A stretch of 62,667 nt of DNA, the filler included, from Hausera hauseri (taxonomy: Eukaryota), in NCBI GenBank assembly GCA_046269625.1. It is 9 parts of 9 records of this genome, joined end to end, with 100 filler letters (N's around TTAATTAATTAA, not from the genome) between each part and the next. Parts side by side here need not be neighbours in the genome. Positions count along the whole stretch, not along the records: positions 5,781 to 14,915 come from JBJURY010448801.1; 8 more parts are not named here. One strand, given 5' to 3'. Position numbers and translations under genes: made by a program. The notes beneath the pieces were generated by a model. It saw only the letters and a program-made list of their open reading frames with translations, was not told the DNA's origin and made no database searches. This document shows positions 8,061 through 11,886 of this stretch, in pieces (position 1 is the first letter of the stretch; every line of letters begins with the position of its first letter).

Positions 8061-9441
8061 GATAGACCAATATTTTACGTTCGAGTGGTTTTAGCATTAT
8101 CGCTAATTGCCTCCTATATCCCGAGAACACAAGCTAACTGGTGGTGCGGCGGTTACGGAGTTCGGAAAGGTGGAGCGAGATTGGAGGTTGTTAAAGCGGA
8201 AAAGAAATCAACAGTTAAGGGAAAACCAAGACAAGAAGATATAAGATTATTACAAGAAATAATGATCCACTACTACTCGCCTAACTCCACATGCGTTGGA
8301 TTTAAGATACAAAAACCACACAGAAATTCTGGAAGGATCCAAATTGTCTTATACGATGTAATACAAAAAAAAACAAAAAATTGTGATTTTGAGCCCGGAG
8401 AACGTACGCAATGTTGCGACATAAATTTCCGACATACTTATAATCTGACTTATCGTCTGTACCTACCGAAATTATCTAAAATTTATCAAAACAAAACTGC
8501 AATTCCAACTAGTTATTCCTGCTTGGAATAGGCATCATAAAATAAATCTTAACGAAATGTTACGATCCACTTACCCACACATAAGACTATTAAACGAAAA
8601 TATCCAGAGAATCTCTGTGAATAAGGAAAGACAGTGTATTCAAATAAATACTCGAACGGAGTTAACCGTCAGTCGGGAAATCAGTATCGTGTTTGAAGCA
8701 GTAATAGGACGAATGCCGAATATAGCATACTGTTCCATTCGCGCGGGTGTAAAACATCCGTGTAGTAAAATATCCGTAAACAAAGAATTTAAAATAAAAT
8801 TTGACTTATACGAGATACGGCCTAATAAATCAAGTGTGCAATTACGAACCTACTATCCAGAAAACTGAATTTGGACAATTTCAATGGAAACCCCGATTAA
8901 AAGGCCGACCGCCCGAATTATTACAATGAACAATATATCCCAAGAAAAAATTGAAGACATACCTATCAGATTTTCAGTTCATCGGTATAGAATAGTATTC
9001 TTTGTTCAGGAAGGATTAAACTACGATACAGAAATAAACTGTCAAACCTTATATGACAGACAAAAAGTAAAACTTATACGGAATACACGACATATAGAAT
9101 GTAGCGCTTTAAAACCTCAGACAGAATATATAATAAAAATTAACGCAGCAGAAAAGCAAAATCAAACAATTACCTTACGCACTTTAGCAGAAAATATTTA
9201 CCCAGGAATACAAAAGGGCCAAGACATAGAAAACATACTTGCCACAGACATAACAACACAGAAGCCACATGAAGAAATGACTCTACATATTGTAGCAATT
9301 ACTGGGACATCAGTGTTCGTCTTATTAATATTAATTGCGTCATTTTATATAGTTGCCAAAAATTGTAGAAAGCAGCGCAAAAATCGTGATAGAGGGATAA
9401 GGGTGGTTTATCAAAGTGATTTATATGATAAAATAACCTGA
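8061..9441 (+). pseudogene. Env-position type-I membrane protein with FN3-like domain, in frame with the integrase C-terminus and broken into three ORFs
   Basis: Signal-like stretch FYVRVVLALSLIASYIPRTQA, Cys-containing beta-rich ectodomain, FN3 signature ALKPQTEYIIKINA...ITLRT, TM segment IVAITGTSVFVLLILIASFYIVA, basic stop-transfer KNCRKQRK, tail ending YQSDLYDKIT. Confidence 0.7.
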
Positions 9442-9520
9442 CAACTACAGATCGGGTTATTCTATCATCAGACAGTAAAAATATTTCGTATCGAAATAAG
9501 AATCTGTCTAAAGAATAATC

Positions 9521-9539
9521 TTATTTTCTTCTATTTCAG
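9521..9539 (+). promoter_or_regulatory. Putative splice acceptor for ORF3
   Basis: TTATTTTCTTCTATTTCAG lies 13 nt before the ATG at 9553. An equivalent acceptor precedes ORF3 in element B. Confidence 0.6.
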
Positions 9540-9540
9540 A

Positions 9541-11886
9541 TTGGTAAGTATAATGGCTGCCCGAAGCGGAGCTTATGCAGATATCGATGAATTCCTTCAG
9601 GAAAATGCGACGATTATAACCCCAAATTCAAAAGCCATCTACCGGCAGATCCATATCGAATCACAAGACAAAAGATCAATCGAAATAAATGAAGTAGACA
9701 AGATACCTAATAGTTTGAAAGGAATCGTGGAGGAAAACAGAGTAATACGGCTTTATGCAATGCGGGATAATGAAGACGCCAGAGCCTACAACTTAAAGAA
9801 TCTATTGAAATGCGAATTAGAACAACATAACGACGTATACCTTCACCTGGCAGAAGGCGAAATTTATTATAGATTAGACGGACAAAATTGGAATCCGAAT
9901 AAAGGTCGGCAGTATAAGTTTAGTACTTTCAAGCTATATGGAGCGAGCTTGCTTGGAAAAGAACTGGAATTAAGAATAGCCGCCCTACCTGTGAAAATGA
10001 TGATCGAAATTACCCGCGAAGAAATCCCAATCGTGCCACTGCCTCCCTTACTATATCATCAACAACCGATGGAAGACCAAATCTATCAACATTCGGGATC
10101 ATATAAGTTAGTTCAGGATGGACGAAATGTCCGTATAATTGCTACCAATTATGGAGAAGGAGATGACGGGAAATACATTCCCCTCGAGGTGTCAGTAAGA
10201 GACCGGAACGGGGTAGAAATTTATTCCAGAACAATTATACCTCGGGTAAGGGTAAGAGAAACATACGCAGAAATAACGGGTATCAGAAAGGACGATTTGA
10301 AAAAGGGAAAAGACGTCAAACTTGTGGAAACCGAGTTGAATCATTGTCTATATGGGTGTATAATAGTGGGATTCTTAACACAAGATCAAATAGACAAATT
10401 AAAAATTAAACAGGCAAACATAGCCGGAGTACGGGAAATTTGGACACACCCGGAAGTGAAGGAAAAACTAAACAACATGAACCGACCAGTCCCTATGACG
10501 ATGGAAGCAAATTTTAAGACAATGTTAGAAATTATGATCGAAAACCCCTACCGAATCAATAGACAATTATCCGCTTCGAAACGAACCCAATATTTGCGAG
10601 ACCTATATGTCAGGCTAAAATGGGACCATGAATGGTCACCGTTAAATCCAAAAAGTAATTTGTCAAGTATTACGAATCCCCGGAAACTAAACTTTCGACA
10701 TCGTAAACAGTTCGTACCATATTCACCAATACGCATTATAGAAACAAAAAGGGACAACAATATGCAAATTACGGTACCAGTTCCCAAGGAGATTGTACAG
10801 CCTAAGCGTAAGACCCTCACATACGGATTTCAAGCACCCGGAAACTCACAAAAATCCAAAGAAACGTCACCCAAGAAACCCAGACTACTTGAAGAAAAGA
10901 AAACAAAATCAATATTTGGCTTATTTAAGAAAAAGGAAAAAGAAACAAACCAGAAAAAGGCTGCTGAGTTAACCAAAAATAAACCAGGAACATCAAGACG
11001 TATCACAGAAGTAAACGTTTTAAGGGAAAGGGGAGAAACTCCGAAACCAATGCAAGTCAGAATAGAACAGGAGAAAACCCAAGAAGGACCCCGAATATTA
11101 ATTATGGCGGAATACGTAAGCCATGGACGAATAAAAGAGGCAGTATTTTATATACACACTGCGCCCATACTAGAGATCCACGAGAATGCCTATGCCCGTA
11201 TTGATCCAAAACTCGGAAAATACCTAACCCCAGTATTTAAATCACTACATGGAACAAAGAAAATAACTGTGCCCATAGATAATCAGACAAGAATAGAGAT
11301 GAAGAAGCAATACAAGAAAATGGGAATCCCAGACCTAGATGCACAACAAGTCATAGAATGGACCTTAATAGCAGTAAATGGAGATCCCCGGAAGAGTTCC
11401 ATAGATCCAGATCAAAAGCAGCTACATGGATACTTGTACAAAAACCCCCAAGGACTTCTCTTCCAAGAAATAACATGGGTCACGGATTGTGATTTAGATA
11501 ATAACACCGAGATCCTTTGCCCTGTTTGTGAAGCAAATCTATGGCAAGGATACGTGATCTTAGCAAACAAAAACTGTAGACACCGCCATTGTCGCGATTG
11601 CTTAGAGCAGTGGACCCTAATTAACGGAAAGACGACTTGCCCCGTATGCCGAGCAGAGGCATCCGAACTGAAGTACTTTTCTCGCGGTGAAAACAACAGG
11701 ATAGTGGAAATAAAACCGCACCATGTGTACTATCTGGAACAAAACCCTTCAATTAGCAACCGAAGTGAATCCCAAAGTGACTTACGTGAAAGACTAAATG
11801 CCCTACAACGCCCAGTCCGAGGCGCCACCTCTCCTGACGCAATAGGCACATCCGAGGATGTCGCTCAGGGAGGAGAAATGTTGTAA
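9541..11886 (+). CDS. Intact accessory ORF3 (~780 aa) with C-terminal RING-HC (C3HC4) finger
   Basis: Uninterrupted 781-codon ORF with first ATG at 9553. RING at 11518-11649 reads CPVC-x15-CRHRHCRDC..W..CPVCR. Basic NLS-like SPKKPR is present. The stop codon lies inside the 3' LTR. Confidence 0.85.
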   Translation: MVSIMAARSGAYADIDEFLQENATIITPNSKAIYRQIHIESQDKRSIEINEVDKIPNSLKGIVEENRVIRLYAMRDNEDARAYNLKNLLKCELEQHNDVYLHLAEGEIYYRLDGQNWNPNKGRQYKFSTFKLYGASLLGKELELRIAALPVKMMIEITREEIPIVPLPPLLYHQQPMEDQIYQHSGSYKLVQDGRNVRIIATNYGEGDDGKYIPLEVSVRDRNGVEIYSRTIIPRVRVRETYAEITGIRKDDLKKGKDVKLVETELNHCLYGCIIVGFLTQDQIDKLKIKQANIAGVREIWTHPEVKEKLNNMNRPVPMTMEANFKTMLEIMIENPYRINRQLSASKRTQYLRDLYVRLKWDHEWSPLNPKSNLSSITNPRKLNFRHRKQFVPYSPIRIIETKRDNNMQITVPVPKEIVQPKRKTLTYGFQAPGNSQKSKETSPKKPRLLEEKKTKSIFGLFKKKEKETNQKKAAELTKNKPGTSRRITEVNVLRERGETPKPMQVRIEQEKTQEGPRILIMAEYVSHGRIKEAVFYIHTAPILEIHENAYARIDPKLGKYLTPVFKSLHGTKKITVPIDNQTRIEMKKQYKKMGIPDLDAQQVIEWTLIAVNGDPRKSSIDPDQKQLHGYLYKNPQGLLFQEITWVTDCDLDNNTEILCPVCEANLWQGYVILANKNCRHRHCRDCLEQWTLINGKTTCPVCRAEASELKYFSRGENNRIVEIKPHHVYYLEQNPSISNRSESQSDLRERLNALQRPVRGATSPDAIGTSEDVAQGGEML
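11867..11878 (+). promoter_or_regulatory. Polypurine tract
   Basis: AGGGAGGAGAAA immediately precedes TGTTG. Confidence 0.75.

Follow-up and report, generated by a model that had tools for sequence, protein, structure and literature searches.

A post-integrase membrane protein ORF and a likely spliced pseudo-enzyme ORF3 in Ty3/Gypsy elements of Hausera hauseri, with a possible role against host RNA surveillance

We analyzed a 62,667-nt stretch of the Hausera hauseri genome (GenBank assembly GCA_046269625.1; hereafter the window), which consists of nine contigs joined by N spacers and holds many mobile elements. Our subject is a pair of accessory genes in element A (5781-12591, +), which is a Ty3/Gypsy long terminal repeat (LTR) retrotransposon, as reverse transcriptase (RT), RNase H (RH) and integrase (IN), arranged in this sequence, a polypurine tract (PPT) and a TG...CA LTR are all present. 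Its pol gene (5783-8035, +; Pfam matches RVT_1 at E = 1e-20 and rve at 8e-5) comprises the C-terminal half of RT, RH and IN, with the 5' side cut off by the start of the contig. Behind pol lie an open reading frame (ORF) for a type I membrane protein (8064-9441, +) with a signal-like segment, ectodomain, stalk, transmembrane (TM) helix and basic tail, a pyrimidine-rich candidate splice acceptor whose CAG ends at 9539 (9519-9549, +), and an unbroken ORF of 777 amino acids (aa) that we call ORF3 (9553-11886, +). The frame of ORF3 crosses the PPT, recognized from its sequence at 11867-11878 (+), and ends 8 nt into the 3' LTR (11879-12591, +), which shares homology with that of element D, described below.

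The modules of ORF3 were assigned by profile searches and by an AlphaFold model of aa 1-376 (predicted local distance difference test score, pLDDT, 71; predicted template-modelling score, pTM, 0.48; seven sequences in the alignment). Residues 192-363 of the model superimpose on human ISG20 with Z 18.9 and a root-mean-square deviation (rmsd) of 2.8 over 159 aligned residues, an ORF3 family profile matches ISG20L2 (E = 9e-18) and ISG20 (E = 2.6e-9), and two ORF3 relatives, P0005 and P0022, match Pfam RNase_T. From structure, profiles and alignments together, positions 10126-10641 (+) almost certainly encode an ISG20-type DEDDh exonuclease fold whose catalytic residues have been lost. The region includes the sequence CLYGC, and the motif CxYGC-hydrophobic-F makes up the strand that runs into exonuclease motif II. 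The N-terminal domain (9562-10020, +) is probably an AlkB/2-oxoglutarate-oxygenase-like barrel without a conserved HxD/E, as aa 4-156 of the model match the AlkB-family protein Ofd2 (Z 9.5, rmsd 4.1, 137 aligned) and OsALKBH1 (Z 8.9, rmsd 3.5, 138 aligned). Sequence-level searches gave no support for this domain, and among 12 N-domains no HxD/E falls at a common column, with three of the 12 having no HxD/E anywhere. A conserved domain without a family (11035-11517, +), which has no Pfam match and is also conserved in the relative P0001, lies between a basic linker and a C3HC4 RING finger (11518-11652, +; aa 656-700). In Pfam the RING passes the cut-offs of both zf-RING_2 (E = 3e-6) and zf-C3HC4, and in PDB it matches RING2 (E = 5e-5). 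An earlier description of this locus, made from the sequence alone (the sequence-only reading), had overlooked the RING and had described ORF3 as a spliced "CxYGC" protein; that label gives way here to a predicted AlkB-like fold, a dead ISG20-type DEDDh domain and a RING.

Relatives of ORF3 exist in both active and dead versions. A scan of 1.84 billion proteins returned 34 matches, 6 covering the N-terminal half and 28 the RING region. P0001 is a full-length natural relative of 870 aa (45-46% identity) that is collinear with ORF3 of A, carries the same RING above the Pfam cut-off and ends in identical residues. An active form of the gene is encoded at 13 metagenome loci (13 of 419 pattern matches were confirmed), and the ORF3 tree was built with the 11 complete locus proteins, the two stop-interrupted loci being left out. 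The motifs D-x-E, GHDxxxE and HxxxxD are intact in each of these 11 proteins, motif II having Glu. All three motifs are lost in A and P0001, the partial relative P0002 loses those that it covers, and the ORF3 of a second element, B, retains only the first Asp of the DEDDh catalytic residues. Two scans of viral contigs found no relative, a word-based homolog search with aa 1-340 retained none of 3942 candidates, and Atlas feature scores for the N-terminal half were at most 0.81, which we treat as a lead only.

Element B (40554-48499, -) has a decayed pol (44218-47530, -) in which protease, RT, RH and IN are recognized by sequence and Pfam. It is followed by a broken type I membrane protein ORF (42713-44214, -), a candidate splice acceptor with its CAG ending at 42643 (42643-42663, -), a broken ORF3 (41222-42642, -) composed of an N-domain (weak match) and a dead DEDDh domain with no RING, and a 3' LTR (40554-41144, -). 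At least two frameshifts and two stops interrupt this ORF3, and the family profile meets it in three collinear matches across frames (independent E-values 0.02, 0.11 and 1.5e-10). The sequence-only reading had presented A and B as two diverged Gypsy elements on separate contigs that share the order integrase, signal/ectodomain/TM ORF, CAG acceptor, ORF3 and PPT/LTR. Both statements hold, the first from the spacers and a pol identity of about 35-46% aa, the second from hydropathy and the ranking of acceptor sites. The motifs AEGxI, PLPP, CxYGC and LxxKxxxIxG are collinear between the two ORF3s as had been described, and alignment establishes homology (tblastn E = 2e-7; z 16 against shuffles), with a family profile built without A and P0002 recovering A at 2e-25 and B at 7e-6. 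The claim that ORF3 reaches the PPT/LTR is correct for A, whereas in B it ends about 80 nt before the PPT. A third Gypsy element (36428-40400, -), whose pol is mostly 50-74% identical in aa to that of B and thus closer to it than A is, is cut by a contig end just where its membrane ORF would start.

The family of element A is multi-copy in two DNA runs, and 2189 contigs of run X1 match ORF3. Among the best-supported 40 of 446 differences, 38 fall inside the ORF, and these comprise 25 synonymous and 13 nonsynonymous changes and no stops where 30% synonymous is expected (p = 7e-6, omega about 0.23); contig depths were not used for ranking genes. In element A itself ORF3 has 0 breaks in 2334 nt versus 12 in 2240 nt of pol (conditional p = 2e-4), the latter counted by eye in a three-frame translation as 5 in-frame stops and 7 frameshifts. 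We regard it as very likely that ORF3 is a selected accessory gene, and the earlier proposal of Gypsy elements with a retained accessory region agrees with this purifying selection in A's family. The break counts would also be expected if ORF3 of A had been co-opted by the host, or had become a dominant-negative or restriction factor that restrains the family, and was for that reason kept intact in a dead element; the excess of synonymous changes even among variants in which at least 90% of depth differs from the window copy (13 of 23) is compatible with this as well. Such a role is nonetheless improbable, since ORF3 is multi-copy and retains its PPT and LTR, the ORF3 of B decayed as its pol did, and an old pol recombined with a younger 3' end would give the same contrast.

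The acceptors of both elements stand out from their surroundings. The site at 9539 in A has 16 pyrimidines in 18 positions and ranks first among 181 YAG sites, the runner-up having 13, and the site at 42643 in B likewise has 16 of 18 and ranks first among 204, again with a runner-up of 13. A perfect donor-like GTAAGT occurs at 9544, only 4 nt past A's acceptor; it was not seen at the acceptor of B. A like arrangement of acceptor and donor is hinted at when the leaders are translated in P0002 (FFFRLVS) and in P0001 (FLFLAKVS), and a conserved micro-exon may lie upstream of the ORF3 ATG. An AG stands just ahead of the ATG in all nine printed active-form loci. Judged by these signals, ORF3 is probably made from a spliced message.

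By hydropathy, each of the A and B membrane ORFs has a hydrophobic, signal-like stretch followed by an ectodomain and then by a TM helix, which in A lies at about 9289-9345. The ORF of A continues the integrase frame with no stop between, that of B is in the frame of the integrase end behind a single stop, and neither has an ATG ahead of the signal segment. The simplest reading is that the membrane protein would be a C-terminal extension of Pol that is cut by signal peptidase. Two breaks are present in A's ORF (p = 0.02 at the pol rate), namely a frameshift at about 8450-8530 and an in-frame stop at 8866-8868. Similarity between ectodomain repeats 1 and 2 of A (z 3.9, p = 0.004, uncorrected among 28 tests) suggests an ectodomain of about three beta-rich repeats. 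A low-confidence model of the last piece (pLDDT 48.6) has seven strands and the TM helix; in a fold search with it, matches to the TM helix took up the list, which had a single row for a beta domain (CspB, Z 6.5) and none for fibronectin type III (FN3), and a word-based homolog search with this piece retained 0 of 641 candidates. The description of the protein as FN3-like in the sequence-only reading could not be confirmed, there being no FN3 match in Pfam or PDB and the resemblance consisting of one motif. This is LxPxTxY, a post hoc pattern for FN3, which has one match in 125,330 aa. The accompanying remark that the accessory proteins lack F-type envelope (env) features was correct, in that no F-family Pfam match was found in the membrane-ORF pieces and no furin-type site in A's ectodomain.

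The pairing of membrane protein and ORF3 recurs outside the window. At the metagenome locus L001, a 504-aa signal/beta-rich/TM protein with an LxPxTxY motif as in A lies upstream of the DEDDh gene, with two short ORFs between, and this order supports the pairing at the level of architecture. The sequences themselves show no significant similarity: the best z among nine frame pairs of the A and B membrane ORFs is 2.4, where the earlier reading had implied related proteins, none of nine piece pairs exceeds z 0.5, and a profile-profile comparison of the A and L001 repeats stays at shuffle level (9.9 vs 9.5), the rows for B, one of them out of frame, being disregarded. These comparisons bear on whether the membrane ORF is itself the envelope or fusion protein, in which case a single fixed cassette of two genes would have come down to A and B inside one RT clade. 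The same gene order in A, B and L001 would fit that explanation, as would the type I topology, sequons and cysteines. We find it hard to maintain and give it little credence, however, given three membrane proteins without significant mutual similarity, no fusion-protein family match, the missing furin-type site in A, a beta-rich model for the one piece folded, a pol identity between A and B of only 35-46%, and A and B LTRs that are unrelated (score 32 vs a shuffle mean of 35).

A candidate for the fusogen is found instead in element D (15270-22725, +), in which an LTR, a primer binding site (PBS)-like TGGCGACC at 15967 and gag are followed by a fusion ORF before the contig ends ahead of pol. 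This ORF (21229-22122, +) encodes a Monjiviricetes-type fusion glycoprotein (PF24664, E = 2e-24). The LTR of D aligns to that of A with a score of 153, where the maximum of 100 shuffles is 55. Because its LTR matches this gag-env element, A's lineage probably carries its fusogen upstream of pol. An attachment or modulatory role would then be left for the post-integrase membrane protein of that lineage. For a class III env between gag and pol, D offers the order gag then fusion ORF, and the corresponding 5' parts of A and B are cut off by contig ends. Element D is itself decayed, with two long ORFs without a family match and an 85-nt repeat at 17644/18140. The 3' LTR of element B is followed by a PBS-like TGGCGACC (40549-40538, -) with the same start as D's, which suggests a tandem array sharing an LTR. 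Metagenome locus L013 has LTR-like DNA behind its active gene, then a PBS-like site and then gag, an order similar to that of B's ORF3, 3' LTR and PBS-like site.

The other neighborhoods of active relatives contain different accessory genes. At L011 and L012 the active DEDDh gene sits after RING and TRAF/MATH ORFs. In the stretches L011:1-4637 and L012:54-2995 the accessory ORFs encode two or three proteins with a RING and one complete TRAF-like protein (with RING, zf-TRAF and MATH), and there are short ORFs that look helical. We considered whether the domain that precedes A's RING occurs as a separate ORF in L011 and rejected this, as the match comes from the RING alone (E = 1e-10 when it is included, 0.12 when it is not). 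Within the family of A, 38 contigs of run X1 diverge from A at 9474 and 43 join it at 11821, so that relatives seem to share the flanks but to hold other DNA in place of ORF3, which may thus be an exchangeable module. These observations also bear on the possibility that ORF3 acts within the element's own cycle and that host silencing is not its target, the dead domains shielding the ends of genomic RNA or cDNA or aiding packaging and the RING controlling turnover or trafficking of Gag or Env. The same folds and selection data are compatible with such a function, an open ORF3 in a pol-dead copy fits a family mobilized in trans, and auxiliary replication roles are favored for a DEDDy ORF3 by Rodriguez et al. 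(PMC5408684). However, relatives group the gene with RING, TRAF/MATH and other ORFs of host-signaling type, and the contigs leaving at 9474 and joining at 11821 suggest that relatives lack or swap ORF3. We hold an own-cycle function to be unlikely, though it deserves more weight than co-option by the host.

Parts of this arrangement have precedents. Bdelloid rotifer Juno/Vesta LTR retrotransposons carry a DEDDy ORF3 (Rodriguez et al. 2017, PMC5408684), and ORF3s are typically expressed from spliced messages (PMC5408684). As in the elements described here, a DnaQ-fold 3'-5' exonuclease gene forms a separate ORF3 behind pol, and the DEDD-to-DEED change of Juno/Vesta parallels the Glu of our active relatives, which aligns with the Asp of ISG20 after GHDL. 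The rotifer proteins are RNase D-like DEDDy with intact catalytic residues, whereas ours are ISG20-like DEDDh and dead in A and B; here, moreover, a predicted AlkB-like domain is fused to the nuclease fold (in A also a RING) and a separate membrane ORF lies upstream. The giant planarian Gypsy elements known as Burro/GYPSM1 (Arkhipova and Yushenova 2019, PMC6431247) have RING-type, MATH/TRAF and ubiquitin-related accessory modules, which recall the RING and TRAF/MATH ORFs of L011 and L012, and an env between gag and pol, an arrangement that the LTR-related element D, cut before pol, would fit. The available text of PMC6431247 names no DEDDh, AlkB-like or fibronectin-type product, and A and B are small truncated pieces in which no giant polyprotein was seen. 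The gag-then-fusion-glycoprotein order of element D also resembles the GAG-ENV-POL errantiviruses with a herpes simplex virus (HSV)/glycoprotein B (gB)-type env reported from Nematoda, Bryozoa and Platyhelminthes (Chary and Hayashi, PMC13524379), although the main text of that paper mentions no post-pol cassette and no exonuclease, fibronectin, RING or accessory product.

Further precedents concern the folds. Gypsy elements of Phalaenopsis have an extra ORF with an AlkB-family (2-oxoglutarate-dependent dioxygenase, 2-ODD) domain, an active N6-methyladenosine (m6A) demethylase proposed to counter host surveillance (PMC9289625); in contrast to that active plant enzyme, the barrel predicted here forms one protein with a nuclease fold and has no HxD/E that is conserved. 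Maelstrom and EXD1 are catalytically inactive DEDD proteins belonging to the pathway of PIWI-interacting RNAs (piRNAs), as stated in PMC5408684, and Exuperantia is a structure match to our ORF3 model (Z 11.1). A dead DEDD fold retained for RNA binding would be the common feature, but those are host genes, while ORF3 is element-encoded and has ISG20 as its best structural match. Accessory DEDD, AlkB and RING/TRAF ORFs of LTR retrotransposons and GAG-ENV-POL errantiviruses are thus each already in print, going by these sources. None of the titles and abstracts found in literature searches describes an LTR element whose ORF is a dead DEDDh-RING or an AlkB-DEDDh fusion, families that Repbase, subscription journals or the supplements of PMC13524379 may list, and no literature match was found for fibronectin type III together with env-like gypsy LTR retrotransposons. 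Our analysis adds a three-module ORF that is unbroken in a copy whose pol is dead. It also adds that, in three elements distant from one another, the ORF is accompanied by one for a type I membrane protein, and that the LTR connects A to an element with gag and env.

The reading that we favor, with about an even chance of being right as a whole, is that a post-integrase membrane ORF is combined with a likely spliced pseudo-enzyme ORF3, with a RING in A, that serves as an RNA-binding adaptor disarming host RNA surveillance. ORF3 would be read from a subgenomic spliced RNA. The ancestral protein would have trimmed RNA 3' ends, and the branch leading to A and B would have retained binding only, its two dead RNA-enzyme folds attaching to RNA or to complexes of RNA surveillance. 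The RING of A would recruit a ubiquitin-conjugating enzyme (E2) and ubiquitinate a host silencing or antiviral factor met on the bound RNA. The membrane protein, released from Pol by signal peptidase, would serve attachment or surface modulation, with fusion supplied by an env of gB/Monjiviricetes type that would lie between gag and pol, the LTR-related element D being the model. For the anti-defense adaptor role of ORF3 taken by itself, we put the chances slightly below even.

Several points weigh against this reading. Both the RNA binding and the ubiquitination target are proposals made from predicted folds and sequence, and the absence of the RING from B means that the ubiquitin ligase (E3) step is not general. 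The AlkB Z scores barely exceed the tool's caution level of 8 for a domain that was modeled jointly with the nuclease, and five of the seven sequences behind the model are distant relatives, four of those five with active-site motifs, which may steer the fold. The branch uniting the dead forms in the tree has support of 88/92 and long branches, and all 13 active-form loci come from just two assemblies. The variant test on ORF3 is limited to the best 40 of 446 differences, with neighboring changes counted singly. The membrane ORF of A looks neutral in the corresponding test, with 5 of 16 variants synonymous after exclusion of three in the frameshift zone, and the membrane proteins of A, B and L001 have no significant mutual similarity, A and B included. 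Finally, the 5' half of A is absent and D is cut before pol, such that an upstream env in A is proposed from the LTR match alone.

A bolder and in our judgment unlikely extension would place these elements in an invertebrate enveloped retroelement lineage organized like a complex retrovirus, in which gag is followed by a fusogen and integrase by a separate attachment glycoprotein of several repeats, and in which a spliced counter-defense protein of Vif/Vpx type, made up of two dead RNA enzymes plus an E3 ligase, degrades a host RNA-silencing factor and is selected even in pol-dead copies. If true, this would be an element-encoded ubiquitin ligase directed at the small-RNA defense of an animal. 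These elements bear on the question whether animal retrotransposons, like complex retroviruses, encode proteins dedicated to suppressing host silencing. For such suppressors, a natural ORF without breaks in which predicted RNA-binding pseudo-enzyme folds are fused to a RING is a direct test case, and the existence of one accessory gene in both active and dead form illustrates how an enzyme could turn into an adaptor. Were a second surface protein to accompany the fusogen, this would point to two-component entry among invertebrate retroelements.

The window holds further elements, most of them recognized by eye. Downstream of the LTR of element A is a Penelope-like endonuclease fragment (13179-13637, -). 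A BEL/Pao-like element at 48552-50054 and 54285-58441 (-) has a gag that ends in CCCH-type fingers, and a sequence of 77 nt repeated exactly at 48600/58313 points to an overlap between the two ends of that contig. Two decayed stretches at 116-4500 and 58600-62500, about 74% identical, have the look of a protein-primed DNA polymerase B (Polinton-like). A leucine-rich-repeat ORF lies at 29808-30536 (+), with a match to Pfam LRR_5 (E = 8e-6) that is below the cut-off.

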